DNA of 64,000 nt from a phage. This document shows positions 123 through 63,198 of this stretch, one piece after another. The notes beneath the pieces were generated by a model. The model was not told the DNA's origin and made no database searches. It saw only the letters and a list, made by a program, of their open reading frames with translations. The stretch lies in NCBI GenBank assembly GCA_026683435.1, contig GCA_026683435.1_4866.1; one strand, given 5' to 3'. Position 1 is the first letter of the stretch. Each line of letters opens with the position of its first letter. The translations under genes were made by a program, and so were the position numbers.

Positions 123-180
123 GATGCTTACCTTTTATAGTCGAGTTGGGGAAATTCAGATGAGGCTTTCTCATCTCACT

Positions 181-199
181 TAGGTAATATCTATCTGTG
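181..199 (-). promoter_or_regulatory. conserved upstream motif P1 (plus-strand reading TAGGTAATATCTATCTGTG), copy 1
   Basis: One of four near-identical copies; lies 51-69 nt upstream of the minus-strand start at 122. Confidence 0.4.
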
Positions 200-211
200 A
201 ATATTTGGGAT

Positions 212-254
212 ACAAAAAAATAAAAGAGTTGTCCTCACTCCGAAGAGTGAGGAC
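212..254 (-). terminator. intrinsic terminator: 10-bp stem with CGAA loop (231-254) plus T-run on minus strand
   Basis: gtcctcactc-cgaa-gagtgaggac hairpin directly downstream of the 345..1166 gene, followed on the minus strand by a T-rich run (plus-strand A-run 212-229). Confidence 0.6.
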
Positions 255-4026: not shown

Positions 4027-4933
4027 GGTTTAATTCTCCGTTTGGTTTATCATACCTCACGCAGAATCTGTAAATTTTAATCAGCCAGGTACTGGCGTTT
4101 CACAACGGGAGTACCCACCCCTCTCGTCTGTTCCGAGCCGTCAAGATCCGATCACCCCACTTTGGAGTTATCCCCCAAGTCTGCGGTTCTACACGCAGAC
4201 CCCTTTTCGACGCAACGCCGAATTCGAATCAGTTTTGGCCCGACGCCAGAGCGGAATCAGCGATAACTATCGGAGGTAAGTTCAACGACGTCTCTCCGCT
4301 GCCCAGTCCTCTGGCGCTGCCACGGTCAACTCGGATTTTGTCATGGGTGAGCAGTCGACTTTCTCGACACTCTCGCAAACCGAACTACGCCCGACGTAGC
4401 ACCGTCGGCAGGTCGGTTATTTACCGAGTACCTGAATGGGTGGTGATTGTCGGAATCCCCGCCGACGCTCACCGGTTCTGTTCCACGGCGAAAGTTTTCC
4501 AGAACATAATAAATCACGCAGTGTTAGATTGCGCTTTGTCGAAGACACCACGGTAGGTATTTTCGAAAAAGCGTCCTGGGTAACAATCCCAGGACTTGGA
4601 GCCCTAGCGTGCAGGGTTTAAAAGTGATTGGACCATTGGCGCGGTCAATCGCTATTCGCATATAACAACAAACTCACGTAATCAAAAAATTACCGGCTCG
4701 AGGCGTAGGCGTCCAGGAGCCGGTGAGTCACACAGCAGTGAGTCCCTCTGCGGGGATTTTCGTGGAGCTTGTCGTTGGAATAAAAATCCGTCCCCGGACG
4801 GGTTGGTATTGTGGGTCGACTTGTCAGAGTCTAACGACCAGGGAGGCGACCACCGAAGCTATGGGTTTTTGGACATCGAGTGGTGGTCTGAACACACGAT
4901 AGGGAAACCACGTAAAAAATACACGGGGTACCC

Positions 4934-6316: not shown

Positions 6317-7450
6317 TTACGTTTTGACTGACTGTGAAGGTAATCTGGCATCGTACATTAAAAAGATTTCCAGCAGGCTCATACCCGTCGCGTAAAAGAT
6401 TTGGTCTGTGATGACACTCACTAACGCATCTGGGTCAATCGCATCTACTGCGAAATCGCTGTCGAACTGCCAGAACTCGACGTCATCCCCCTTTTCAAAC
6501 GTCGCGGCATACAATCCAGGTTTCACACCACGCCGGAACGAAAAGAGTTTTGCGTCAGACTCAGTGTCCTTACCATAAATTTCCCCGTCGGTCCGTGTGA
6601 TCGCTGCGCGTTTACACCGAGTTACCGTAAGGAGCGCACGGTTTGCAGATGCTTGCGATTTAAACGGATAGGGGCCATCGTATGTCGGGACATTCTGGTC
6701 GCCTAAGGCATCAAGTGCCTTACTCCGATAGACTACCGGAGACTTAAAATTACACAGTCGATTCCCTTCGGTAAACATTGTGTATTCGACCTTAACGTCG
6801 GTACCGACGAGGTCAGCAGGGGACACTTTGTAGTGTGCTAACTGTCCCTGCACGCGGCGAGAGAGCATCGATGCCAGGAAGGTATGGTTGCCCTGTGTAC
6901 GCAAGACATAACCGAACTCTGTGCAGTCGACGATACGAGCGTCCATACGTCGTACAGGCTCCAGCCGGTAAGTCACATCATTCGCTTCGATAAGAAACTG
7001 ACTGATGCTAACATCGCGAGATCGATGTTTGATTGCTTCAAACACTTCACCCGCTTCCAGAATAGCTGGTTCAATTACATTGACCTGGAATGGGAGGGGT
7101 TTCGTCGGCCGTTGACCCATTGTTGTCACTGTCATCGAACGTAGCCACGGATCGTCCTCGCTAGGGTCATTGGAAAGCCAATGTGTTAACCAGCGAGAAA
7201 GGTTCTGAGGAATCGTTGCGGTTGAATATAAAATCACGGTACCCATTATGCCTGCATCGGCCAGCAAGCGCGCGAGTACCGTGTTCATCGAATCGTATTT
7301 GCCATTTCGAAGAATAGGTAATCCCCCGACCTGGACCATTTCGCAGATGACGCCGTGCGGCAGCACCCACATCTTCACTTGTTGGGCAGAATGTATCTGC
7401 CCCGTGCGTAGCTTTTCTTGCCACGCGTGCTTACGTTCATAGTTCATCAT
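6317..7450 (-). CDS. hypothetical protein (377 aa)
   Basis: Long ORF; AAGGAG RBS before ATG at 7450. Confidence 0.6.
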   Translation of the reverse strand: MMNYERKHAWQEKLRTGQIHSAQQVKMWVLPHGVICEMVQVGGLPILRNGKYDSMNTVLARLLADAGIMGTVILYSTATIPQNLSRWLTHWLSNDPSEDDPWLRSMTVTTMGQRPTKPLPFQVNVIEPAILEAGEVFEAIKHRSRDVSISQFLIEANDVTYRLEPVRRMDARIVDCTEFGYVLRTQGNHTFLASMLSRRVQGQLAHYKVSPADLVGTDVKVEYTMFTEGNRLCNFKSPVVYRSKALDALGDQNVPTYDGPYPFKSQASANRALLTVTRCKRAAITRTDGEIYGKDTESDAKLFSFRRGVKPGLYAATFEKGDDVEFWQFDSDFAVDAIDPDALVSVITDQIFYATGMSLLEIFLMYDARLPSQSVKT

Positions 7451-7522
7451 TGGGTAAAATCTCCTTCAGGTATACTCTCAGTATGATAACATATATCCGT
7501 AAATTTTTAGAGGTTTAGTGCC

Positions 7523-21473: not shown

Positions 21474-21487
21474 AATGGTCGATTAAC
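21474..21487 (-). promoter_or_regulatory. conserved palindromic motif P2 (TAATGGTCGATTAA), copy 1
   Basis: Same 14-mer, one mismatch allowed, found 18-34 nt upstream of three minus-strand starts. Confidence 0.4.
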
Positions 21488-21933: not shown

Positions 21934-22332
21934 TCAGATTAGCTGCTCGGCGCGCAAACGTCTCAAAGTGTTCGTTGCTGTAACAAGAACATCTTGCAGT
22001 TCTTGCATTGCTTCACCAACAAAGAACGGTTTAAGATGCAGGTCGCTAGTGATGAGTCCGCCGTATTTGTACGGTAGGTCTGTAATATCACAGACGATGG
22101 GATTTTTTGCTCGCCACGTTTCATCAGCAACAAGAATAAGAAACTTCCAGGCGTCTTGATTGCCGAGCGATTCACCGGTTTCTGGCTTGTAGAGTTCTTT
22201 TAAACGTTTATCGCGCTCGGAGATAAGGTATTCGTCATCAGTCAACAGACGAATTAAATCGGCTTCGTTGCTCTCGGCTTTAGCACAAAGCATCATGGCA
22301 ACAAACGGGTCTTGGCGTAGTTGGTTAGTCAT
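21934..22332 (-). CDS. hypothetical protein (132 aa)
   Basis: ORF; AGAAGGAG RBS. Confidence 0.5.
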   Translation of the reverse strand: MTNQLRQDPFVAMMLCAKAESNEADLIRLLTDDEYLISERDKRLKELYKPETGESLGNQDAWKFLILVADETWRAKNPIVCDITDLPYKYGGLITSDLHLKPFFVGEAMQELQDVLVTATNTLRRLRAEQLI

Positions 22333-22352
22333 TGTAAATACTCCTTCTGGGT

Positions 22353-22366
22353 AATAGTCGATTAAA
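22353..22366 (-). promoter_or_regulatory. motif P2 (TAATAGTCGATTAA), copy 2
   Basis: 21-34 nt upstream of the start at 22332. Confidence 0.4.
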
Positions 22367-22388
22367 GCGTTAACGTGTAACGCTCACC

Positions 22389-22417
22389 TAAGTAATATAT
22401 ATCTCAGTTCTTTTTGA
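22389..22417 (-). promoter_or_regulatory. motif P1 (TAAGTAATATATATCTCAG TTCTTTTTGA), copy 2
   Basis: Near-identical to the copies at 181, 54049 and 63167. Confidence 0.4.
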
Positions 22418-22478
22418 ATGCAATTAATAAAATAAAAAGACTCACCCGTATCCGAAGATAGGATGAGCCTAGTGGAGC

Positions 22479-24935: not shown

Positions 24936-25664
24936 TTACCTCATATACAAATCCTCGAGTGGCTCTGCACGTACCGGATCGACCTGGAGTGCAGAACGGA
25001 TACCCTGTTTCAGTTCCACATCTGCAATCTTGGCCAACCGGGAAGTTTTGTTCAATGAACCTGAACGCAGCGGAATAAACTGCACCCGATTCATCAAATC
25101 GCTGTCTTTTTTCAGGGTGTAGCGGAAATACGTCCGCGGGTCGCCAACCTTACGCTGTGTGTGGGCAGCATAACAGTCAGCGGTGATCTGGTCGTTAAAG
25201 ACCGTAAAGCCGTTCCACGTCTTAGTGTCAGACAATAGCTCAGCGTCATCTACTGCGGTGTACCAGAAAGGCCGGTTTCCGAAGTCGTAGATGTACGAAG
25301 CGATGTTGTAGACTGGCGAGGAGAGCACTTGCAGCATTCGGTTGGGGAACACCACCGTGCCGGGGTCAAAACGGAACTCGTAATACGGCACACCCTGAAC
25401 GTCAATTTCCTCAAACGCCGACGGGGTAATTTCAATGAACGTCGTGACGTTCGATACCCCGTAGGTTTTGCGGTCAGTGGAGATAGCGAAAATGCCGACG
25501 ATTTCGACTTGCGAAGAAATTACCGCCAGCTCTTTAGCCACGAAGCCAACAGGGATGTAAATGTAACATCCCCCTTTGGTGATGGTGGCCGTGCCTTGGT
25601 CCACTAAATCTGCATGAATTTTCGTCGCGTCACGACGTGCTGTTTCAATGGCGCTCACGACCAC
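24936..25664 (-). CDS. hypothetical protein (242 aa)
   Basis: ORF. Confidence 0.55.
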   Translation of the reverse strand: MVVSAIETARRDATKIHADLVDQGTATITKGGCYIYIPVGFVAKELAVISSQVEIVGIFAISTDRKTYGVSNVTTFIEITPSAFEEIDVQGVPYYEFRFDPGTVVFPNRMLQVLSSPVYNIASYIYDFGNRPFWYTAVDDAELLSDTKTWNGFTVFNDQITADCYAAHTQRKVGDPRTYFRYTLKKDSDLMNRVQFIPLRSGSLNKTSRLAKIADVELKQGIRSALQVDPVRAEPLEDLYMR

Positions 25665-27486: not shown

Positions 27487-30400
27487 TTAGTTGATTTTAG
27501 CCGGCAAGGCTGGGACGTCTTCACCATCTAAGATGCGTCCGATATTCTCCCCACCACGATACCCGACAGCGTTGGTGGTTCCGATGCGCATGATAGAACC
27601 TACGATACGTGCGTCGACGGAATCACGACCAAAGATAATGTCGAGTTCCTGCCCGTCTTCCGTTTTGTTGGTTCCATACATCACTTCCTGAACCGTCGTT
27701 TTCAGCTGGTTAGCAATAACCATCTTATCCGCTGCTGCCATCTCTACCCGGTGTGTGATGTAGAATCGGACACACAGGCTATTGTACGCTAACGGCACCC
27801 CCTCAACACGAAAATCACCGTTGACTCGACCGTCCTTCGGCACGTCACGTTTGAGAGCCAGCGCAGTCTTCCGACGTATACGGTCGTATTTACGAACCAT
27901 CTCCGCCAAAGACGGGGTCATATCTTCCACCTCGCCGTGGTAAACCACTTCGATTTTGTCGATAAACCCACGAACACCAGAGCGTGGTGCAAAGGAGCTT
28001 AACTCACGCAGCGTTTCCGCTGCTTCTTTACTGAACCCGCTCATATCGCCGGTCAGGTTGTCGGTGAAGGTGCATAGAATTGAATCCACGTCTACGTGGT
28101 CCCCTTCTTTTACCATCTCCAACAGGTTCTGGGTAAACGTCATTGTGACTTCTTTGAGTTTGGTAACATCGGCTTCAGCCTTAGCAGCGAACCGCTCACT
28201 AATGGCGTTGGAGTCCTCAATTACTTCTTCCCCTTCAATCAAAGCGACAGTTGCCAGTATCCCGTTTTTAAAACTGACCTGCGTTGGATCGTAGATGTCT
28301 GGTTCAAAGTGTTGTTCGTTGTACGTGATAACGGCACCGGCGGGGAGTTTATCTCCGCGCTTCCATTTCGTTACCAGGGTGTGTGGGTAGTAAGTCCCTT
28401 CGTGCGGACCGAACCAACGGCCCAGTGGGAAAGCTTCTTCCTCTCCGTCGTCGTATTTGATTTTAACGTGGTCGTTAAGAACCTCCACAATCTTGCCTGG
28501 TTTATCGATTACGCGTGCGTGCTTCACAGAAGTACGGTGTGCCACGAACTTTTCTTGCTCGGTACGATACGGTGTGGTGGTTGCGCCAACACAACTGGTC
28601 GCAGAACCGAATTGAATCCCAACGAAGTTCTGACGCTTAGCATCGTCCATCAGGGTATCCGGCACCAAGCCATCAATAAATGACAGTGCCTCACCTGGCT
28701 TCAGTTTATCGAGGTCCTTTTTAAAGGTCGTGCCGTCCACGGTGTCGTAACGCGGATTGTTTGTTGCAAAGGCGGTGATACCTACGTCGCCGTTATCGAC
28801 CGTGTTACCGGAGATAATCCCCAGGTCGCTCGGTTGGAATTCACGGGTACTGTATACCATGGTTTTGCGGTTACGACCGCCTGTACCGCCCATGGTAACA
28901 ACATCTTTTTCTTTGATGTTCTGTACCGGGTTTGCGCCAGGTGCCAGCAGAACAGACGGGTCGGAGTTAATTGCACCCCACACCATGTCCTGCGTCAACT
29001 CAAACTTACGATTCGAGTTAGGCGCGTTGTTGTAGTTACGCATCGCCCGCACCATCGCGGTGTAGATGTGATACGAAATACGTTGGTTCCCGATGAACAT
29101 CATTTCGTCACCGTTAATTTCCGGTAACGTGTGGTCCGTCTGCAGCAGTTCGTTAGAACGCTCCAGTAAGCCGATAAAGGTTTCCGGCTCGCCCATTTTC
29201 CTGAGGATACGCGCGTGCATGTCATCAACAAATGCGGTCCGCATCAGTTTCAGCTCTTTGATGTAGCGTGGTGTTAGCCCATCTGCATCGCGTAACAGGT
29301 TCAGATAAATGTCTTCCCGGTCAACTTCCGACTCGGTATACGTGGTAAAGTGTTTGATGTAACGGTCTAAGCCGTTGACAATCATCCTCTGTTGATCGTT
29401 CTCGCAGACAATTGCAATTTTCGCATCCTGGAGACGAATAATGGAGTCGAACTGACCTTTATCGATACGTTGTCCGACAGAGAGAACCTCGTAACTGATA
29501 CCAAAGTGTTTCAACATCCCGGTTAACCCGAGATAGTACGAAAACACAAAGCCCAGCGAGATTGATTTGCCCATCAGTGACAGTTCGGTCATTTCTCGTG
29601 GAGCCTTAGAGGTGTCCACGCCAAAGACTTCGGCGAGCGTACCCAGTGGTTCGGTCTTATCCTTATCCACTCGATAGAGCTGGGAGTTTTTATCCATACC
29701 GACGATGACATGACTCCGCGGTTTCTTCGCCACAGGTACCAGCTCGACACGGTCCGCGTCTGCCAGTTGCCCTTCGTTAAAGAATGCCGCTTTCTGTTTA
29801 ATGTCAAAGTTCCATTGGTACCCAATTGCGTTGAACGCTGCTACACGACGTGCCACCTCGGTGTACTGACGCGGCAGTTTAGACAGCGGATCGAACACAT
29901 TCGCCAGTTTTGCATCAGTGATTTCGGTGTTCTTTGGATCGACTGCACGAGTAATAATCGCGTTAGTGAGCCAACGTCCGTAATCATTGACGACTTTATC
30001 ACTGCGACGGACAAAGTTCTTCCCGTAGGCAGTGGTTAACGCTACAGTATCGTGGGACACTTTACGGATAGGAACATCAACGCGCTGACGACGCATTGTA
30101 TATTCCACACCATTCGCAACCCAAGTACCGTCTTCGGTTAATGCAGGAATTGAGAAACGTACCGTGGTTGGTTCTCCGCCAATCGGCTGAATACGCAACG
30201 TGTGGTGTTCGATATTCCCGGTAACGGAAATCTCTTTCTCAACAGTGTGATTGTGAATCGCCAAACCGAGACGCTGAGATGACGCCACTGCACCCAGAAC
30301 ATCTTTCGGGAAGATTTCCTGGTTGTACTGACGAATGATTTGGTCGGTAGTATTTTCCGCCCAGGCTTCATCCGTAACTAAGCGTTCAATCTTCTTAGGC

Positions 30401-31692
30401 TCGGCTTTAACTTCGAGTTTCTTCGGATCGATGGTCAGGCCTTCGCCGTACGTCTCTTTAGGATTGTACGGGTTGGGTAAGTTTACGAAACGTTTAGAAG
30501 ATTCGTTCAGGAACTGATACGCTTTGGCGGTGACGCGGCCCGCTTCTGCCAGGCGCTCAACTTCCTGTTTAATCACAGCATCGTGTGGGATGGTGCGTTC
30601 TACGACGATGGTGGTTGGTTTGACATCTTCTTTCGGCGCTTCGATGACCAGATCTTCTTTCTCATCGAACTCATGATCGTTCAATATATCGTCAACGTTG
30701 TCGCTTTGTGTTGCTTCATCGTCGACGATATCGAGGGTTTCTTCCGGTTTACTGGCAACGGCTTCAACAACATCGTCGTCCTCTCCCAGATGTACGCGTT
30801 CGTCCCCTTCCGGTGTAACGAACTCGTCATCTTCGTAGTCGGTAGACGGCGGTGTGGTCATCACAGTAGTCAGTGTACGGTAGAACATTCTGCCCATCTG
30901 TACGTCAGTCAAACGACCACCGGCAGACTTACGCATTCTTTCAATTACACCCATGTTCATGGATGTAAAACCACCGTTGTGCGTGAAGATAAAGTTCACA
31001 CGTGACAGCTGGTTCATGTCCATACCGTCAAACAGTGTTGCTTGCTGATCGCCGTACACCCAACCGAACAACTCCAGTAACCACAGGAGATTAAAGTCCT
31101 TAAAGCGCTCCAGTTTGGTTTTAACACGATCGTTATACGTCATTTTAAAACGATCGAAAGAAGGCAGTACGTTACCCAGTTCGATGATGTAGTAGTTCTG
31201 ACGCATGTACTCACGTGAGTCAGTTTTCATCTGGTTAGTTATCAGCAGCTGAATGTTGTGCAGACGTTCGTACCAGGACATCAGAGTATCAGGGTAGAAA
31301 TAATGCGGCAGCATCGGGGTGTAGTTTTCGATGAGCAGCACTTTCGGATCTGAACGCACCACGCCGTCTTCAATCATGCGACGAATACGACGATTGTTAC
31401 GATGGTACTGGAAGATTTGACGTTCTTGACCAACAACCGGTTTCTTACGCGGGTGGCCAATAATGCCGTCTTCAGGCAGCTGGAAGTGGTGACGAATCAT
31501 CGCCGGTTTTTCCAGCTGACCAAAACATGGTGTGGTTAACGGTGGTGCTAAAACCACCTGGTCTAAATCGATGGTGTGGTAGATAGAACCACGTGGGAGC
31601 TGGAGCTTCTCCAGCGGGATAATACGCGGACGACCGAACTCATCGGTCTTGCGCACGGTAAAGCGCTGGTTAAACTGTTTCAGAAAAATCAT
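27487..31692 (-). CDS. multisubunit RNA polymerase beta-like subunit (1401 aa)
   Basis: C-terminal half carries beta-like segments (IEDSNAISERF vs E. coli NFEDSILVSERV; AADKMV...EDGQELDIIFGRDSVDARIVGSIMRIG vs GDKMAGRHGNKGV...[26 protein letters not shown]); immediately downstream of the beta-prime-like gene. Confidence 0.6.
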   Translation of the reverse strand: MIFLKQFNQRFTVRKTDEFGRPRIIPLEKLQLPRGSIYHTIDLDQVVLAPPLTTPCFGQLEKPAMIRHHFQLPEDGIIGHPRKKPVVGQERQIFQYHRNNRRIRRMIEDGVVRSDPKVLLIENYTPMLPHYFYPDTLMSWYERLHNIQLLITNQMKTDSREYMRQNYYIIELGNVLPSFDRFKMTYNDRVKTKLERFKDFNLLWLLELFGWVYGDQQATLFDGMDMNQLSRVNFIFTHNGGFTSMNMGVIERMRKSAGGRLTDVQMGRMFYRTLTTVMTTPPSTDYEDDEFVTPEGDERVHLGEDDDVVEAVASKPEETLDIVDDEATQSDNVDDILNDHEFDEKEDLVIEAPKEDVKPTTIVVERTIPHDAVIKQEVERLAEAGRVTAKAYQFLNESSKRFVNLPNPYNPKETYGEGLTIDPKKLEVKAEPKKIERLVTDEAWAENTTDQIIRQYNQEIFPKDVLGAVASSQRLGLAIHNHTVEKEISVTGNIEHHTLRIQPIGGEPTTVRFSIPALTEDGTWVANGVEYTMRRQRVDVPIRKVSHDTVALTTAYGKNFVRRSDKVVNDYGRWLTNAIITRAVDPKNTEITDAKLANVFDPLSKLPRQYTEVARRVAAFNAIGYQWNFDIKQKAAFFNEGQLADADRVELVPVAKKPRSHVIVGMDKNSQLYRVDKDKTEPLGTLAEVFGVDTSKAPREMTELSLMGKSISLGFVFSYYLGLTGMLKHFGISYEVLSVGQRIDKGQFDSIIRLQDAKIAIVCENDQQRMIVNGLDRYIKHFTTYTESEVDREDIYLNLLRDADGLTPRYIKELKLMRTAFVDDMHARILRKMGEPETFIGLLERSNELLQTDHTLPEINGDEMMFIGNQRISYHIYTAMVRAMRNYNNAPNSNRKFELTQDMVWGAINSDPSVLLAPGANPVQNIKEKDVVTMGGTGGRNRKTMVYSTREFQPSDLGIISGNTVDNGDVGITAFATNNPRYDTVDGTTFKKDLDKLKPGEALSFIDGLVPDTLMDDAKRQNFVGIQFGSATSCVGATTTPYRTEQEKFVAHRTSVKHARVIDKPGKIVEVLNDHVKIKYDDGEEEAFPLGRWFGPHEGTYYPHTLVTKWKRGDKLPAGAVITYNEQHFEPDIYDPTQVSFKNGILATVALIEGEEVIEDSNAISERFAAKAEADVTKLKEVTMTFTQNLLEMVKEGDHVDVDSILCTFTDNLTGDMSGFSKEAAETLRELSSFAPRSGVRGFIDKIEVVYHGEVEDMTPSLAEMVRKYDRIRRKTALALKRDVPKDGRVNGDFRVEGVPLAYNSLCVRFYITHRVEMAAADKMVIANQLKTTVQEVMYGTNKTEDGQELDIIFGRDSVDARIVGSIMRIGTTNAVGYRGGENIGRILDGEDVPALPAKIN

Positions 31693-31710: not shown

Positions 31711-33324
31711 TCATTTCAACAGCGCAGCAGTCGTTCTTTTAATCACGTTGTTAACCGGATTGATTTTGAAACTGCCGTCTGTTGCAAACCAGTAGTTTTT
31801 CGAACTGACCCACTTCCGATTTTCCTCGAGCGCTTCGGTTGACATCGGGCAGTTTGCTGAGCCGGTGTCACCATCGTAGTCACCACCCAATCCACCTAAT
31901 CGGGATGGATGCGGTGCCATGGATTCCACAAAGGTTTTCACGGTACGGTCAGGGAAGCTAATTGCTCCCTTCTCTTTTAACGTGACCCAATCGTCTTCCA
32001 GTTCATGCAAATAGAGGGAAGAGGTGGTGGTCTCCAATCTTATGGTCGAGGAGTAAGTCGAACCGCGTCCCGTAACCGGATAACGCGTGATGAACGAGAA
32101 GTAGTCATTCCAAATATCGTAACCTGACAAATAGAGGAGTTCCGCTAAGCTCAGTCCGCGGACAAGCTTACGGTCACGTCCTTCCGGCAGGTCTTCAATA
32201 TCGTAAAAGATTTTGAAGCTGCGTTTGTCCTGGTAGATTAATGCCACGTAATGGTCCGGATCAATCATCAGCGGTTTATGTCGAAGCTCGCGCGCTTCCA
32301 TTCTGTTGATGAGTGTTTCGATGCCATCGTCGGTAGTGAAAAGGTCATACACCCGCCCGGAGACTTCCAGGAACTCACGCTTGAGTGTTTTGGTGTTAAC
32401 GCCGTATAAGTTGCCGTCCCCTGCCCGGATGTTACTGAGGTAACGTTCACGGATGTGGTATTGAGCCACAGGCAGTAATGCCTTCAGGGTTTGGTACAAA
32501 CCGATACGGGTATCCGTTGGACGAATCGCATCTTCGCGACCCATGACCTTGGAACCGGTTGAGAATGAAGACAGTACGTTACGCGTACCGTTCATTAACT
32601 TACGTGACGTCACTTTACGACGTGCAAAACCACCTTTACCATCCTGGATGTTGAAGAAGTACATCCAGATGTCATTAAAGGTTTGTTGGAGCTTCCAGCG
32701 AACCGGGTCAGTCAGTTCCGTTCGCGTACTGCGGTCGGGGATTGCACGCGCCAGAGAAATCAGACGACGGTAGAGTCCGCCAATCTCTTCTTCTTGGTCG
32801 CGGCCATCCTGACGAATGACCAAATCACGTAATCCCGCAGGCAGAACCAGCACATAGCGGCTGAGACTGACCGGACGGAACTTATTGAAGAAATCGACTG
32901 TCTCGTCGCGACGCATCGACTCGTTGCGACCCGGAGTCAGTTGTTCGTAGTAGCGTAGGAAGAAGTTGAAGCCGGTGTCTGCACCTTTATCACTGGGCAG
33001 AGCCGGCTCGAAATCTTTTTCTTTCTCATTCCAGATAGCGAATCGCTTCCCGGAACAGATTTCTTCGTACAGCTGTTTCAGCTGGAACAATGCCAAACAA
33101 ACGGTCGGCGAAATGATATCCAGTTTGATATCAATGTACGAGAACGTTGAGTCTCGTGCTTCGCTCCCTGTGAGGCCAAAAATTTCGGTTGAATACAGTC
33201 CTTCAGGGTGAAAGTTTTTCGTCAGTCCCTGAAAGGTGTCTGTTGTTGTAACTGGTTTTAAATGCGACACCAGGGACTTATTAACGTTCAGTAGATAAAA
33301 ATCTACCCAGTTAAGCTTTCTCAC
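31711..33324 (-). CDS. multisubunit RNA polymerase beta-prime subunit, N-terminal portion including the catalytic loop
   Basis: GLYSTEIFG (cf. GLFCARIFGP), YVLVLPAGLRDLV (cf. LPVLPPDLRPLV), GGLYRRLISLARAI (cf. NDLYRRVINRNNRL) and GGDYDGDTG (cf. NADFDGD); GTG start with AGGAG RBS. Confidence 0.75.
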   Translation of the reverse strand: MRKLNWVDFYLLNVNKSLVSHLKPVTTTDTFQGLTKNFHPEGLYSTEIFGLTGSEARDSTFSYIDIKLDIISPTVCLALFQLKQLYEEICSGKRFAIWNEKEKDFEPALPSDKGADTGFNFFLRYYEQLTPGRNESMRRDETVDFFNKFRPVSLSRYVLVLPAGLRDLVIRQDGRDQEEEIGGLYRRLISLARAIPDRSTRTELTDPVRWKLQQTFNDIWMYFFNIQDGKGGFARRKVTSRKLMNGTRNVLSSFSTGSKVMGREDAIRPTDTRIGLYQTLKALLPVAQYHIRERYLSNIRAGDGNLYGVNTKTLKREFLEVSGRVYDLFTTDDGIETLINRMEARELRHKPLMIDPDHYVALIYQDKRSFKIFYDIEDLPEGRDRKLVRGLSLAELLYLSGYDIWNDYFSFITRYPVTGRGSTYSSTIRLETTTSSLYLHELEDDWVTLKEKGAISFPDRTVKTFVESMAPHPSRLGGLGGDYDGDTGSANCPMSTEALEENRKWVSSKNYWFATDGSFKINPVNNVIKRTTAALLK

Positions 33325-53484: not shown

Positions 53485-54015
53485 TTAGAGATAGTGTTCC
53501 ACTATCACTTCTAACTCGCGGAAGATATGTGCGGTTTGATTAAACAGCGTATCCTGCTCGGGTGTTTGTTTATCAAATGCACGCTGATACAGTTCTAACA
53601 TAGCGAAGACTGTGCGCAGTTTTTCGCGCGCGACTTCAGGATCGGATGCACCGAAATAGTGATCAAGCCATCGTGGTTCTGAACTCTCTCCTTTTCTATC
53701 GATTGCCTCAGGCAACTCTAACCAACGTTGATTGGGAATGTTGCTACTGGATACACGGTTATACTCAGAAATGAAGAATTCCAATCGCTCCACCAACGTG
53801 TCAAAATCTCGAATACGTAATTCGAGTTGTCCACGCAATGAAAAAGGAAGGTATTCTTTCCCATTATATTCCAGAGGCTCTGTAATGAGTTCTAAGCCCA
53901 CCATCACTCTGTGCAGGGTGTTATGGGTATTCTTATGAAACTCAGCCTCCAAAGAGCGTCTGCGAGCTTCTACAGCCTTACGACGCAGGAGTGTTGAAAG
54001 CCATTTAAAAAGCAT
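53485..54015 (-). CDS. hypothetical protein (176 aa)
   Basis: ORF; P1 motif 34-52 nt upstream. Confidence 0.5.
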   Translation of the reverse strand: MLFKWLSTLLRRKAVEARRRSLEAEFHKNTHNTLHRVMVGLELITEPLEYNGKEYLPFSLRGQLELRIRDFDTLVERLEFFISEYNRVSSSNIPNQRWLELPEAIDRKGESSEPRWLDHYFGASDPEVAREKLRTVFAMLELYQRAFDKQTPEQDTLFNQTAHIFRELEVIVEHYL

Positions 54016-54048
54016 AGGTGTTATCCTATTATGAGATGTTGTCTCGGA

Positions 54049-54077
54049 TAGATAATATCTGTCTGAGTTCTTTTTGA
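54049..54077 (-). promoter_or_regulatory. motif P1 (TAGATAATATCTGTCTGAG TTCTTTTTGA), copy 3, in a divergent intergenic region
   Basis: Between the minus start at 54015 and the plus start at 54092. Confidence 0.45.
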
Positions 54078-54091
54078 GATGAGGTTATCCC

Positions 54092-54562: not shown

Positions 54563-55238
54563 ACAGCGCAGTGTCCTTTACGTCAGTACCGACGTATTGT
54601 GCAAGAAAACGGGTGGACTCCTTAAAGGGGTTCACCTTATCTCTTTTTATTTGCGCGATTGCTTCTTCCGTTAATTCGCTGGTCAGCATACTCGGTCGGG
54701 TAATCGTAAAATCCGGAATCGGTTTCTGGAAATGGTTCGCGTGTTGTTCTATCCACGGATACCAATCGTACATTATCCAACCATCCCATGCAGATGCAAG
54801 TCGTCCTGGTGTAAGATCGCTGTGAGGAATAACAACGACGTCTACTTGCACTTCGTTATAGTAGTAACGCAGTTCTTCCAAAAACGCATGACGTTCTTCA
54901 TCATCGAGATCAGCGTATGGCCACAGGTTAAACGTTAAGACAGGTCGCTCGATAGGAGCGTGCATCTGTATCGTCATTAACATTGCCTGTACTTCGTTCT
55001 TTAGCGTAAGCAACATTTCTGTTGGCTGCGCGTTCTGCAACGCGCGTTTATCACGCTCCGCGAACTTTTTATTCCAGTCCTGAATTCCTACCACTTCGGC
55101 CCACGCATCTGTGAACCGCATCCGATACACTTCTAAATCAAGCTTCTCTAATACATCAGGCTGCAGCACTTTCGCCCAACCAATTCGTGTATCGAAGATT
55201 GTGTCGATATCGACTAAGAAACGGCGTCCTAATCTCAT
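54510..55238 (-). CDS. hypothetical protein (242 aa)
   Basis: ORF. Confidence 0.5.
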   Translation of the reverse strand: MRLGRRFLVDIDTIFDTRIGWAKVLQPDVLEKLDLEVYRMRFTDAWAEVVGIQDWNKKFAERDKRALQNAQPTEMLLTLKNEVQAMLMTIQMHAPIERPVLTFNLWPYADLDDEERHAFLEELRYYYNEVQVDVVVIPHSDLTPGRLASAWDGWIMYDWYPWIEQHANHFQKPIPDFTITRPSMLTSELTEEAIAQIKRDKVNPFKESTRFLAQYVGTDVKDTALFSLRRHQQDDDSQTQTP

Positions 55239-55903
55239 TCCGGGCGTCCTAAGTTGTTACCGATGTGCATTGCTTTAAAGTACGAAGACCATGTACGCGG
55301 CGCTTTTGAACTAGTACGCTCAGCCCCTTCCAGGTTGATGCGACCTTTACCGGTTTGCCGTAGCGATTGATAGAACGCACGTTGTAACGTATCGTTACCA
55401 CCACGCGCCCACAGGAACTCCTGGAGCGTTGAGTCGTGTCCATCCGAGTACATGATGTACGCTTCTGGAAACGAAACACCCGAAGCTTTGGAAGGCCCTA
55501 CTACCTGACCTGAGAGTTTATCGCGGACTTTATCGTTCTTCGCCACCGCCATTTTCTTCTCATGCATCTGCGTCTGGCGACGTGCAGGCAGGCGGAAGAC
55601 TAAATGGGGGTAACGGGTACGTTGTAGGATACCGGTTTTCGGTTCCGTGAGCCACAGGCGCTGACACAAGCTCAGTCCCATCGCTTCGCAAATTTTAATA
55701 TTGCGCATATGGTCAATTTTGACCTTGCCACCAGTTGGGTTGTAAACAGGCAACCCTTCGCGCAGACGATTGAACTCTTCGTCAGACATTCGCGAGAAAG
55801 CGCGCTTGGCAGCTTCCGCGTTAATCCCGGTCGGGTCAACTAAGTTCAGTAACTGTAAAGCATAAGCTTCTGCTTTTTTTCGCCGTGCCGGGTCTAATCT
55901 CAT
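55235..55903 (-). CDS. hypothetical protein (222 aa)
   Basis: ORF, ATGA-coupled. Confidence 0.5.
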   Translation of the reverse strand: MRLDPARRKKAEAYALQLLNLVDPTGINAEAAKRAFSRMSDEEFNRLREGLPVYNPTGGKVKIDHMRNIKICEAMGLSLCQRLWLTEPKTGILQRTRYPHLVFRLPARRQTQMHEKKMAVAKNDKVRDKLSGQVVGPSKASGVSFPEAYIMYSDGHDSTLQEFLWARGGNDTLQRAFYQSLRQTGKGRINLEGAERTSSKAPRTWSSYFKAMHIGNNLGRPE

Positions 55904-58884: not shown

Positions 58885-58940
58885 AAAAAAATAAGCATTA
58901 CCCACTCCCATAAGGGGAGTGGGTAGGCTTTATTTTATTT
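58871..58940. terminator. bidirectional intrinsic terminator (tacccactccc-ataa-ggggagtgggta)
   Basis: 11-12-bp stem 58899-58925, A-run upstream and ctttattttattt downstream; between convergent genes. Confidence 0.7.
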
Positions 58941-59858
58941 GCATTTAGAACCGTTGACAAATGTCGGCGGTATCCATTTCAAAATCTTTGTCCGATTCCC
59001 GTCACGTGGACCGAGCCAGTAAGTACGCCAGTGTGCACGACGCATATGCGCACATCTGCTACCTTGTGTTCTTTTCTCCGTATCAGTATCAAATTCTTCA
59101 AGATACTCGCTTTGTGCTTTTACGGTGGAGAGGACAGTCGGTTTAGATTTTGGTTCAATGTGGTAATTGGCGATACGTTTCTTTCCAGTTAATTGTCTCA
59201 GTTTGACGGGTGTAGGGTTGTGCGGGATCAGTGAGAATGTAAACATGGTAGCGCCGACAATGCGTAACGTTTTCTCATTGGCCGGCGTACCAGTTTCCGC
59301 CACACGCAAGGATACAAAGCCGTCACCCACGTCCACGATTTCAAAGGTTTCCCCCTCGATACGTTTTCCAAAAATCATCATTGTTAAACAATCTTTCCCT
59401 TTAAACATTCGCCGACCGAAAACGTAAGTCTTTTCTTGGATACCGATATCTTTAGCGCGATAGCACACTGAAAAGGAGACGGCCCAACCGGGAATCTTGT
59501 CTATCCAGCTGCGTGGTATCTCAGTGAGAACGTCGCCAAGTAGAACTTGTTCAAAAATATTAAGATCAAATTCCATTTGGATACCCCCGTATCGCCAGCC
59601 GTAGGCAAGAGACAGGAAGTCTGCGGTGCATTCTTCGGCGAAGCAGTTCTTTAGGAACGCCTCAATCGGTATAAAGTGCTGGCCTATCTCGCCACAATGG
59701 GCTATTGCGTATTGCTCGATGATGGCGGGATCTCCACTTCTGGATTTCACACGTTCGTCGATTTTAGTAAGACCGTTTAAGAAATTACTCGGGGATTCGC
59801 GCATACCGATTACATCTACATTTACCGATTCTGCCAAATCAAAAAGAAAGCTGTCCAT
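58935..59858 (-). CDS. hypothetical protein (307 aa)
   Basis: ORF; AAGGAG RBS; P2 motif just upstream. Confidence 0.55.
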   Translation of the reverse strand: MDSFLFDLAESVNVDVIGMRESPSNFLNGLTKIDERVKSRSGDPAIIEQYAIAHCGEIGQHFIPIEAFLKNCFAEECTADFLSLAYGWRYGGIQMEFDLNIFEQVLLGDVLTEIPRSWIDKIPGWAVSFSVCYRAKDIGIQEKTYVFGRRMFKGKDCLTMMIFGKRIEGETFEIVDVGDGFVSLRVAETGTPANEKTLRIVGATMFTFSLIPHNPTPVKLRQLTGKKRIANYHIEPKSKPTVLSTVKAQSEYLEEFDTDTEKRTQGSRCAHMRRAHWRTYWLGPRDGNRTKILKWIPPTFVNGSKCK

Positions 59859-59875
59859 TTAATACTCCTTTAGAT

Positions 59876-59889
59876 TAATGGTCGATTAA
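59876..59889 (-). promoter_or_regulatory. motif P2 (TAATGGTCGATTAA), copy 3
   Basis: 18-31 nt upstream of the start at 59858, just downstream (minus sense) of a terminator hairpin. Confidence 0.45.
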
Positions 59890-59922
59890 AATAAAACTAC
59901 GGACACTCCGAAGAGTGTCCGT
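59885..59922 (-). terminator. intrinsic terminator acggacactc-cgaa-gagtgtccgt
   Basis: 10-bp stem with CGAA loop directly after the stop at 59927; A-rich on plus strand upstream. Confidence 0.55.
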
Positions 59923-59926
59923 TTAA

Positions 59927-60469
59927 CTAGAATTTACTAATAGCGAGTGGCTGCATTGGCTCAATCACAATCAGTATTTCTTTCAGACGTGAAACGATAT
60001 GCTCCCAGACCTGCGCTTCGAGATGACGTAGCATAGTGGTGAACTCCTCCATATACATCTTTTTATACTCTTCGCGGTTGAGATTTTCCCACGCTTCTTT
60101 CAATGGGCCTGCTTCCGGTCCAGACATCTTAATCATCATTTCGATGTCCTTCATTTCATCAAAGGCTTTACCGACCTTATCAATAACCTCATCGGTCTTG
60201 AGTTCGAGTGAGAAGCGACCCATCTTAGACTGCAGGAAGCCGTCTTCAATGTCTTCGTCGTTGTATTCGAAACACGCAATACGTTGCGCGAGTTGATGAA
60301 CTTCATTTACCGCGATATTGACATACGCTGCAGAGATAAGCCCAGCGAGGTGCTGACGATCGATATTCTTCGGTATTAGATAGTCTTCACACTTACGCTT
60401 AAACTCGAACAACGCCGCTGGAAATATTTCACGAAATTCGTCATCGAGTAAGTCAATGAATATCTTCAT
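59927..60469 (-). CDS. hypothetical protein, paralog family member A (180 aa)
   Basis: ORF; shares N-terminal MKIFIDL and length with the next two genes. Confidence 0.55.
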   Translation of the reverse strand: MKIFIDLLDDEFREIFPAALFEFKRKCEDYLIPKNIDRQHLAGLISAAYVNIAVNEVHQLAQRIACFEYNDEDIEDGFLQSKMGRFSLELKTDEVIDKVGKAFDEMKDIEMMIKMSGPEAGPLKEAWENLNREEYKKMYMEEFTTMLRHLEAQVWEHIVSRLKEILIVIEPMQPLAISKF

Positions 60470-60479
60470 TCAACACCCT

Positions 60480-61049
60480 CTATAGTTGAAAACTGAAACG
60501 CAAATGGATTTCCCTTACCGTATCTACCACTTTCCGATAAACGTCTCCCATCACATCCCTCAAATCACGCTCAAGCAGATACACGATTTTCTCACACAGC
60601 TCGCTGCTAAAAGGATAACGTGTCACTGTATAACTGCCCGGATGTTTTTCGGCATGTTCGATGATTGCTTTATCACTAACGGCATACGCGGCAACACGCT
60701 TGCCGTCGTCACGATAGACTACATAAGCGATGTTGTCGAAAGACTCGACGTGGCGTCGAAAATTCGCTACCAAATCCGAAACATCATCGCGTTCAGTCAG
60801 CGAAGTTATTCTGCCAGCATAAACCCCATCGACCAGATCGGCATCAGTAATCTCAACCTGTAAAACGCGCTCCGTTAACGCAATCAAATCTTTCAAAAAG
60901 GGATTGAGCAGCAGCAACATGATGTGCTTTCGATGTTCTTCAGGCATGATACTCTCAAGCATGGCGTCGTAATCTCTGTTGAGAGTTTCGATGAGGCCTT
61001 TCCACATTTCCTCATGCCCAGGCGTGGTCAGATCAAGGTAGATTTTCAT
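60480..61049 (-). CDS. hypothetical protein, paralog family member B (189 aa)
   Basis: ORF; N-terminal MKIYLDL. Confidence 0.55.
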   Translation of the reverse strand: MKIYLDLTTPGHEEMWKGLIETLNRDYDAMLESIMPEEHRKHIMLLLLNPFLKDLIALTERVLQVEITDADLVDGVYAGRITSLTERDDVSDLVANFRRHVESFDNIAYVVYRDDGKRVAAYAVSDKAIIEHAEKHPGSYTVTRYPFSSELCEKIVYLLERDLRDVMGDVYRKVVDTVREIHLRFSFQL

Positions 61050-62398: not shown

Positions 62399-63133
62399 TC
62401 AGTAGTTTAGTTTCTCAGAGACTTCTTTACGGATGCGACACATCACCACCATCGCACCATTCGGAATTTGGCTCACGCAGTTATCCGTGTAAAACTTACC
62501 TTCACAGAGATAAAAGTCCAGACACATGGCATCGGTCAGTTCGTGCCACAGTGTGCCGAAACCGTACTGCCAAGGGCCAGAATGAACGACATCGTAATCG
62601 CCTTCAGTTATGCCAAAAGCGGCAGTAGCGGAAGACCACAGTGTTGAGGAGGTGGTATAAGTGTCATACCAGTAACCGAGCAGACGATGGTTACGACGTA
62701 TCTCAGCTAACCGCTCGTACATTGGGATGAATACATCTTCCACCTGCGTGACAAAATCAGCCAGCATCAACTTTTCCGTGAACCACTCGATCCACGCAAA
62801 GATTTGTTCTTCAACGTCTTGTTGACTTAACCCCGTGGAAGTGATACCTTCTTCGTAGCTGTAACCTTCGTAGACGTCAACAACATTAATCTCTACATGT
62901 TCTAGCGTGAACAACCGTTCGGTGTTGATGCAGTCGTACATCTCTTGTAACCACGCAGTGAAGACTTCTATACAGACGTTGATGGCTGTATACTTGAACT
63001 CGTCACGCAGAGGATACCACTGTGGGTTATCCTTTAGTTCGTTCTTCGCGAACGCGGGCCAATGCTTTTCGAACAACGCTTCAAAGAACTGGGGCGTGAG
63101 GTTTAAAAGCACTGGCACTTCGACTTTAAGCAT
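62399..63133 (-). CDS. hypothetical protein (244 aa)
   Basis: ORF; AAGGAG RBS; P1 motif 34-52 nt upstream. Confidence 0.55.
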   Translation of the reverse strand: MLKVEVPVLLNLTPQFFEALFEKHWPAFAKNELKDNPQWYPLRDEFKYTAINVCIEVFTAWLQEMYDCINTERLFTLEHVEINVVDVYEGYSYEEGITSTGLSQQDVEEQIFAWIEWFTEKLMLADFVTQVEDVFIPMYERLAEIRRNHRLLGYWYDTYTTSSTLWSSATAAFGITEGDYDVVHSGPWQYGFGTLWHELTDAMCLDFYLCEGKFYTDNCVSQIPNGAMVVMCRIRKEVSEKLNY

Positions 63134-63166
63134 CGTGAATAAATTCTCCTTAAGGTTACGTCCCTG

Positions 63167-63198
63167 TAGATAATATCTATCTCAGATTACTTTAAGAG
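63167..63198 (-). promoter_or_regulatory. motif P1 (TAGATAATATCTATCTCAG ATTACTTTAAGAG), copy 4
   Basis: Same spacing to the gene start (63133) as copy 3. Confidence 0.45.

Follow-up and report, generated by a model that had tools for sequence, protein, structure and literature searches.

A repeated intergenic element of an SPN3US-like Salmonella jumbo phage is a probable early promoter, most probably read by the virion RNA polymerase

Introduction

The Salmonella jumbo phage SPN3US (genus Seoulvirus) is related to phiKZ and possesses two multisubunit RNA polymerases (RNAPs): a virion-packaged enzyme (vRNAP) and a second, non-virion enzyme that acts post infection (nvRNAP; PMC5105663, PMC7598289). 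In case of phiKZ and AR9, the injected enzyme transcribes the early genes, those of the second polymerase included, and it is for these two phages only that activity has been found to set in within minutes of infection and to depend neither on host RNAP (rifampicin) nor on protein synthesis de novo (chloramphenicol) (PMC7598289). Here we analyse a short element, termed P1, that recurs in a stretch of phage DNA of 64,000 nucleotides (nt) (NCBI GenBank assembly GCA_026683435.1, contig GCA_026683435.1_4866.1), referred to below as the window. One copy at positions 54,049 to 54,077 had been flagged by a first-pass annotation as a candidate phage promoter, and our analysis indicates that P1 is very probably an early-gene promoter of the SPN3US-like phages, most probably recognised by the virion multisubunit RNAP.

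The early promoters of AR9 follow the pattern AAATATATATTAT-N6-G(+1), as mapped by differential RNA sequencing (dRNA-seq) and primer extension, and the starts of phiKZ and phiR1-37 likewise lie 6 nt past the conserved element (PMC5312081). The early motifs of phiKZ (TATATTAC) and 201phi2-1 (...BTATATTACDWHDGTG; both as given in PMC7058600) have been confirmed by dRNA-seq and ONT-cappable-seq (PMC8244752, PMC10914365, PMC11512511). For two further phages, Klebsiella phage N1M2 and Pseudomonas phage OBP, early promoters have been predicted: TBYAWWWWWTTTCARRYAKATATTATYWAAGTGWA for N1M2 (PMC7058600) and BSHAWWWWWTTTYARRYAKATATTATYWWADTG for OBP (PMC7058600, citing Cornelissen et al. 2012). It is only the early class that can be found by bioinformatics in phages of this group (PMC7598289).

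Results

Copies of P1 in the window

Two pieces of the window (4 kb and 25 kb) show 97–99% identity to SPN3US-like Salmonella jumbo phages, compared with 60–80% identity of the same pieces to Erwinia jumbo phages; as judged from this comparison, the window derives from a Salmonella jumbo phage of the SPN3US type (Seoulvirus), related to phiKZ. The window runs in the opposite sense to the SPN3US RefSeq record, its + strand being the minus strand of that record, and most genes of the window are therefore found on its minus strand.

When the window was searched with the 19-mer TAGATAATATCTATCTCAG, allowing up to three mismatches, exactly four matches were obtained, all on the + strand as written: 181-199, 22389-22407, 54049-54067 and 63167-63185, with 3, 3, 2 and 0 mismatches, respectively. 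The chance expectation calculated from shuffled sequences is 0.01, and none of 100 shuffles reached four matches. This bears out the four co-oriented copies reported by the first-pass annotation, which had also described them as near-identical: this holds for the core, but not for the tail, where TTCTTTTTGA is common to copies 2 and 3 whilst copy 4 has diverged with a 1-nt insertion or deletion (indel) and copy 1 is different. The identical spacing that had been noted ahead of the start codons at 54015 and 63133 was confirmed (54049-54015 = 63167-63133 = 34); in case of copies 2 and 1, the start codons (22332 and 122) lie at 57 and 59 nt. The assumed motif length of about 30 bp proved too short, since an element is indeed present but its conserved part extends from about -34 to +2 relative to the predicted transcription start. 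Using a position weight matrix (PWM) built from the genome-wide set of SPN3US sites, we identified one more copy, which is weaker and had been overlooked. This fifth copy occupies 7479-7501 on the strand of the other four, in a gap between divergent genes; the start codon at 7450 follows 28 nt downstream, and the SPN3US counterpart is at 238178. In total, the PWM thus returned five window copies, each of them on the minus strand (Table 1). The equivalent of copy 1 in SPN3US is found at 4424-4446, upstream of gp5 (RefSeq tag gp261). A search of the window against Rfam gave no match at the P1 sites, the only matches being two tRNAs.

Architecture of the element

For the position matrix, 23 sites from the SPN3US genome were aligned on an invariant G, which afforded a minus-strand consensus of approximately 35 nt: A(-34)..TC.A(-29)AWWWWTTTCAGATAGATATTAYCTanGTG(+1)A. 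Conservation is found at A(-34), T(-32), C(-31) and A(-29, 23/23), in an A/T-rich stretch from -28 to -24, and at TTT(-23..-21), CAGATA(-20..-15), G/T(-14), ATATTA(-13..-8), T/C(-7), C/T(-6), T(-5), G(-2) and T(-1); G is present at +1 in 23/23 sites, exactly 6 nt past TATTAY, and A at +2 in 20/23. The TTCTTTTTGA of the first-pass annotation corresponds to the A/T-rich stretch upstream, as read on the complementary strand. Within the consensus, the block TTTCAGATA occupies -23 to -15 and the core (G/T)ATATTA(T/C) occupies -14 to -7, with ATATTA (-13..-8) invariant or nearly so in the 23 SPN3US sites and in all five window copies. The sites divide into two subclasses, as positions -14 and -7 are completely linked: 16/23 read GATAGATATTAT, are OBP/N1M2-like and have a palindromic core, and 7/23 read GATATATATTAC (the TATATATTAC subclass), are phiKZ/201phi2-1-like and have longer leaders of 50–77 nt.

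Both the N1M2 and the OBP string align with the SPN3US matrix in one register, which runs from -32 to +2 and takes in some 35 positions, and an AT-rich element of about 10 nt with the TATATTAC/ATATTAT core is located near -10. The invariant G is the likely transcription start, because it stands without exception 6 nt downstream of TATTAY, where the mapped relatives initiate. A literature search for the string of the motif retrieved nothing but unrelated primer sequences.

The first-pass annotation had also stated that the motif does not resemble a sigma-70 -35/-10 pair. This is correct with respect to the -35 hexamer, which is missing (positions -35 to -30 read CAYTCn), but TATTAT does sit at -12 to -7 from the invariant G in the manner of a -10 box, with a 5/6 match to TATAAT, and an A-rich tract is present at -29 to -24. 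P1 could hence be a host sigma-70 promoter, its -10-like TATTAT combined with an UP-like A/T element and used early, before phage enzymes are available. We consider this highly unlikely: the sites lack the TG of an extended -10 (A at -15 in 22/23) and display C at -7 in 7/23 and G at -11 in 4/23, -11 and -7 being the positions on which sigma-70 depends most. Conservation is strongest over -20 to -13 (CAGATAGA) and strong throughout -23 to -13, a region that sigma-70 does not read. A consensus scan of the window copies gave no correctly oriented sigma-70 promoter on the motif, such a promoter being characterised by a TTGACA-like -35 hexamer 16–18 nt upstream of a -10 element that bears A at -11 and T at -7. 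The relatives phiKZ and AR9, furthermore, develop without host RNAP (PMC7598289).

The AGATA-T-TATCT core forms a 5+1+5 palindrome in 16/23 sites, embedded in strongly asymmetric flanks; since the core is palindromic in these 16 sites, an unoriented matrix matches both strands. In copy 3 (54043-54077), which lies between divergent genes, the palindrome is nearly perfect and extends over 25 nt. Symmetry of this kind would suit an operator bound by a dimeric phage or host protein, or a hairpin promoter such as those of phage N4, and both were rejected as most improbable: seven high-scoring sites (TATATATTACC) break the palindrome and their partner positions do not compensate, and each of the 23 sites faces its downstream gene in one and the same direction. 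The information in the element is likewise asymmetric, with TTTCAG upstream, GTGA downstream and both A(-29) and G(+1) invariant, and a 1-nt 'loop' is unable to form a hairpin. N4 promoters require a hairpin of 5–7 bp; a hairpin of this length with a 3-nt loop and compensating changes was not found at the P1 sites.

A scan called copy 3 an intrinsic terminator on the + strand of the window (11-bp stem, 3-nt loop, then TTCTTTTTGA). That P1 represents a terminator of this strand, with a hairpin followed by TTCTTTTT, is scarcely credible and was likewise rejected: copy 3 alone qualifies, copies 1, 2 and 4 not being called, and its stem is AT-rich (4 GC pairs of 11), whereas the real terminators of this genome have GC-rich stems and UUCG loops. 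None of the copies has the end of a + strand gene upstream of it, and there is therefore nothing to terminate.

Genomic placement and genes served

Across the SPN3US genome, the PWM identified 23 sites scoring at least 16, all on the main coding strand; the only hits below these (11–12) come from reading three of these sites in reverse, and one more reverse reading scores 17. An equal frequency inside coding regions had been named in advance as speaking against a promoter, and this is not what was observed: 21/23 sites are fully intergenic, compared with 6.4% of the genome (coding 93.6%). A start codon is found 25–134 nt downstream for 20 of these 21 intergenic sites; the remaining one (72483), at 232 nt from its start codon, is the first of two sites in tandem, such pairs being present in two SPN3US intergenic regions (15611/15704 and 72483/72681). 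Each of the 23 sites is directed at a gene on the same strand. P1 is thus present in SPN3US in tens of copies that are nearly all intergenic, co-oriented with the gene that follows and placed at the heads of operons, several of them directly preceded by intrinsic terminators.

The genes that follow include those of the second polymerase. Sites 15611/15704 lead into gp22-gp23, site 28966 into gp34-gp35 and site 72681 into gp76-gp77-gp78, all of them units that carry nvRNAP genes: gp35 and gp77 have been named as nvRNAP subunits (PMC5105663), and gp23 and gp34 carry the annotation 'RNA polymerase beta subunit'. By annotation, as distinct from expression timing, P1 precedes non-structural genes including those for nvRNAP subunits, and none of the first genes downstream of the 23 sites is annotated as virion structural. 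No P1 was found directly upstream of the vRNAP genes, including the four located in the window. The products of these four, gp240, gp241, gp218 and gp244, have been detected in SPN3US virions (PMC5105663), and matches to all of them are encoded within the window (Table 1), in agreement with a packaged multisubunit vRNAP. The gene number of the older literature is obtained by subtracting the RefSeq tag number from 266, a relation that we checked with gp75 (capsid), gp256 (sheath), gp260 (terminase), gp239 and gp81.

These placements also bear on whether P1 could instead be a promoter for nvRNAP (of the middle or late class) or depend on a newly made phage factor. The choice of polymerase is not decidable from sequence alone, and some nvRNAP genes of 201phi2-1 do use middle or late promoters (PMC11512511). 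Nevertheless, we regard such a role as very unlikely, because the mapped non-early motifs of the relatives are unrelated (phiKZ: late TATG, middle TACT at ~-22; AR9: late AACA-N6-TA/G; PMC7598289, PMC5312081, PMC8244752) and because the motif stands ahead of nvRNAP genes, which need to be transcribed before that enzyme exists. P1 moreover exhibits the early-class core TATATTAC/ATATTAT with the start 6 nt downstream, and it is absent from the operons of structural genes. When 6-mer enrichment was analysed over 185 SPN3US upstream regions, only T-runs, Shine-Dalgarno words, CTTCGG and words of the P1 motif stood out; no second promoter-like motif was obtained from these regions, which agrees with the published remark on the early class cited above (PMC7598289).

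Conservation in related phages

An alignment of the intergenic region of copy 3 from 8 phages of 4 genera (Seoulvirus, Erskinevirus, Wellingtonvirus and Machinavirus) reveals the block TCAGAYAGATRTTATC as invariant amid variable flanking non-coding DNA. In the Erwinia phage Asesino (~70% identity), 96 kb of which were scanned, matrix matches are present at the junctions orthologous to copies 2, 3, 4 and 5 (copy 5 at 242439, copy 4 at 186025). Six further phages retain copy 2 at the corresponding junction, and its orthologues span 4 genera. A search for the exact 15-mer CAGATAGATATTATC across viral contigs gave approximately 120 matches, which were mostly single and at chance level.

The virion RNA polymerase as the reading enzyme

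The sequence of P1, its copy number, placement, orientation and conservation, and its match to published consensuses are direct observations. The original suggestion of a phage promoter, possibly read by a phage RNAP, is supported by three of them, namely the consensus match, the placement at operon heads and the conservation across genera, and also by the nature of the phage, which is SPN3US-like and encodes a multisubunit RNAP packaged in the virion. As for the enzyme, it is most probably the virion RNAP specifically, transcribing early genes. In this scheme, packaged vRNAP would be injected along with the DNA and would read P1; each copy in the window would open a leftward (minus-strand) unit of non-structural genes, often right after the terminator of the preceding unit, and P1 elsewhere in the genome would drive the operons of the second, non-virion RNAP. 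The resulting arrangement would give an early-to-late cascade as in phiKZ and AR9.

Several points weigh against assigning P1 to the vRNAP and to the early phase. Both the +1 position and the label 'early' rest on analogy with phiKZ, 201phi2-1, phiR1-37 and AR9, the best-matching consensuses (OBP and N1M2) are themselves bioinformatic predictions without mapped starts, and the literature searched yielded no data on start sites, timing or polymerase dependence in SPN3US. Two SPN3US sites deviate in placement, with 25223 inside a coding region and 174951 overlapping gene ends, and genes annotated as virion proteins do occur further along some of the P1-led operons. Finally, host sigma-70 may make weak use of some copies, because TATTAT is positioned at exactly -12 to -7 with an A/T-rich stretch upstream.

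Leader stem-loops and a conserved box

Downstream of copies 1 and 2, a stem-loop is predicted at the very start of the transcript (Table 1). Stem-loops of 6–9 bp at +1/+2 of the predicted transcript were seen in roughly 9–11 of the 23 promoters, comprising the TATATATTAC subclass and a few others; SPN3US sites 56291, 65410, 92537, 94236, 113983 and 165684 are among these promoters, and the stem-loops rest on single-sequence folds together with inspection of the stems. The orthologues of copy 2 in four genera exhibit the stems GCGUUA/UAACGC, GAUUA/UAAUC and ACUUA/UAAGU, such that the sequence changes and the pairing is kept. Genome-wide, a 5'-terminal hairpin is present in 11/23 promoters against 25% in the null (p = 0.016), with p = 0.08 for the comparison of energies; this enrichment is only modestly significant, and the hairpin is a feature of a subclass, as opposed to a general property of the promoter. 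RNAalifold predicted no structure from a gap-free alignment of the paralogous leaders, which is explained by their differing loop lengths.

A second feature of the leaders is a box, AATCGACYATTA. Wherever it occurs, it precedes an ATG by 18–21 nt and stands immediately ahead of the Shine-Dalgarno sequence. Seven P1 leaders contain it, as do several intergenic regions that have no P1, and the box at 59878 directly follows a strong UUCG-loop terminator. The CTTCGG (UUCG tetraloop) apex is very frequent in the terminators of this phage, with 31/185 SPN3US upstream regions containing it (4.3-fold over expectation), and window terminators with this apex are found at 231-254, 22438-22470 and 59890-59922.

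From these features it is conceivable that about a third of the promoters, copies 1 and 2 included, form part of a cassette of terminator, promoter, +2 stem-loop, AATCGACYATTA, Shine-Dalgarno sequence and ATG, although we think it rather unlikely that this will hold. If it did, the early mRNAs of jumbo phages might possess a leader element that has so far gone undescribed, with a role in 5'-end protection, translation or transcript handling in the early infection vesicle; alternatively, the box could be a second promoter, for nvRNAP, giving dual early-plus-later expression. Equally doubtful is a proposal concerning copy 3, whose reverse-direction PWM score is 17.0 and which lies 24 nt from the start (54092) of the divergent + strand gene: copy 3 might fire both ways and serve this gene as well.

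Neighbouring genes and other features of the window

The coordinates of the P1 copies, their leaders and the adjacent genes are collected in Table 1. Thymidylate synthase and MazG are encoded in the run of co-oriented genes behind copy 3, which reaches as far as ~43373. The region 58935-61049 contains more coding sequence than SPN3US, namely an open reading frame (ORF) of 307 aa (58935-59858) plus one additional ORF of ~180–190 aa; an indel in the copy-4 operon therefore sets the window phage apart from SPN3US, and the layout of this region is closer to that of Erwinia phage Asesino (gp235) than to that of SPN3US. The two tRNA genes detected by Rfam are on the minus strand (1622-1691 and 2783-2855; 65.6 and 37.1 bits); their counterparts in the SPN3US record are the tRNA-Trp and 'tRNA-OTHER' annotated close to its start.

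Table 1. Predicted promoters, leader features, terminators and relevant genes of the window (gene names refer to SPN3US homologues)
Feature	Coordinates	Strand	Remarks
P1 copy 1, predicted early promoter (-34..+2)	176..211	-	core 177-199; predicted +1 = G at 177; PWM 34.3
P1 copy 5, TACGGATATATGTTATCATACTG, predicted early promoter	7478..7513	-	core 7479-7501; predicted +1 7479; PWM 24.0
P1 copy 2, predicted early promoter, TATATATTAC subclass	22384..22419	-	core 22385-22407; predicted +1 22385; PWM 30.7
P1 copy 3 (flagged site), predicted early promoter	54044..54079	-	core 54045-54067; predicted +1 54045; PWM 27.9
P1 copy 4, predicted early promoter	63162..63197	-	core 63163-63185; predicted +1 63163; PWM 27.3
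Stem-loop of predicted copy-1 transcript	158..176	-	7 bp, AGAUGAG/CUCAUCU, at +2
Stem-loop of predicted copy-2 transcript	22365..22385	-	7-8 bp, at +1/+2
Leader box AATCGACTATTA	22352..22363	-	19 nt before start codon
Box AATCGACYATTA, copy-1 leader	137-144	-	
Box AATCGACYATTA, copy-2 leader	22354-22361	-	
Box AATCGACYATTA, P1-less regions	21475-21482, 59878-59885	-	
Intrinsic terminator before copy 1	215..254	-	10-bp stem, UUCG loop, T-run; closes preceding unit
Intrinsic terminator before copy 2	22426..22470	-	UUCG loop, T-run; -18.3 kcal/mol, z = -3.7, 0/200 shuffles fold as well
First gene of copy-5 unit, gp263 homologue, hypothetical	6317..7450	-	
First gene of copy-2 unit, gp249 homologue, hypothetical	21934..22332	-	HD-domain protein gene next
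First gene of copy-3 unit, gp221 homologue, hypothetical	53485..54015	-	
First gene of copy-4 unit, gp209 homologue, hypothetical	62399..63133	-	
vRNAP subunit gene, gp244 homologue	24936-25664		assignment PMC5105663
vRNAP subunit genes, gp241 and gp240 homologues	27487-31692, 31711-33324	-	ORF lengths match RefSeq 'RNA polymerase beta subunit' genes; assignment PMC5105663
vRNAP subunit gene, gp218 homologue	55235-55903		assignment PMC5105663

Discussion

P1 very probably belongs to a promoter class that is already known from related giant phages. Early-promoter motifs have reportedly been found by bioinformatics in every RNAP-encoding jumbo phage (Lavysh et al. 2016 in Virology, as cited by others). 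Current understanding is hence unchanged by our analysis, and a motif of this kind is already expected by specialists in every phiKZ-related phage (PMC7598289). What is gained is a concrete map of the early starts to be expected in SPN3US-like phages (5 in the window and 23 in the SPN3US genome), for a phage that serves as a genetic model for giant phages and for which we found no transcript map. In addition, early-promoter variants of the OBP/N1M2 type and of the phiKZ type coexist in one genome; as the vRNAP is biochemically uncharacterised, this is useful for asking how a split multisubunit polymerase without a sigma factor reads DNA.

The closest described counterparts are the predicted early promoters of OBP and N1M2, to which P1 corresponds position for position in TC.A, the A/T run, TTTCA, RRYAK, ATATTAT and YWA.GTG. 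Placement at the starts of non-structural operons, including those with RNAP subunit genes, is shared with both phages, and the copy number is comparable (31 in N1M2, 23 in SPN3US). SPN3US is, however, a Salmonella phage of the genus Seoulvirus with little DNA similarity to either, and it additionally uses the TATATATTAC variant in 7 of its sites.

The TATATTAC/ATATTAT core of the SPN3US motif is shared by the early promoters that have been mapped in phiKZ, 201phi2-1 and AR9, and the motif also contains the ATATATTAT-N6-G(+1) pattern of AR9. An AT-rich element centred near -10 and a further A/T-rich stretch upstream are found in phiKZ, 201phi2-1, phiR1-37 and AR9 alike, phages that carry ~28–41 early copies per genome and have them ahead of their nvRNAP genes (PMC5312081, PMC8244752, PMC10914365, PMC11512511, PMC7598289). 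P1 differs from the promoters of these four phages in possessing an extra conserved CAGATAG block at -20 to -14; moreover, starts, early timing and independence from host RNAP and from new protein synthesis were measured in those phages, whilst for SPN3US we infer all three along with the identity of the polymerase.

The likeness to bacterial sigma-70 promoters is limited to the TATAAT-like hexamer at -12 to -7 and the A/T-rich DNA upstream of it, as opposed to a missing -35 element, positions -11 and -7 that are not kept throughout and conservation that runs through -23 to -13; the enzyme assigned to P1 has no sigma homologue (PMC13282480). P1 resembles the promoters of the phage N4 virion RNAP and of T7-type enzymes in being phage-specific, in being read, most probably, by a phage enzyme and in consisting of one long conserved motif per phage, and the N4 enzyme is also injected together with the DNA. 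The RNAPs of N4 and T7 are nevertheless single-subunit enzymes, whereas the vRNAP of this phage is a multisubunit enzyme with split beta/beta' subunits, and the palindrome on which a comparison with N4 would depend is not conserved in 7/23 sites here.

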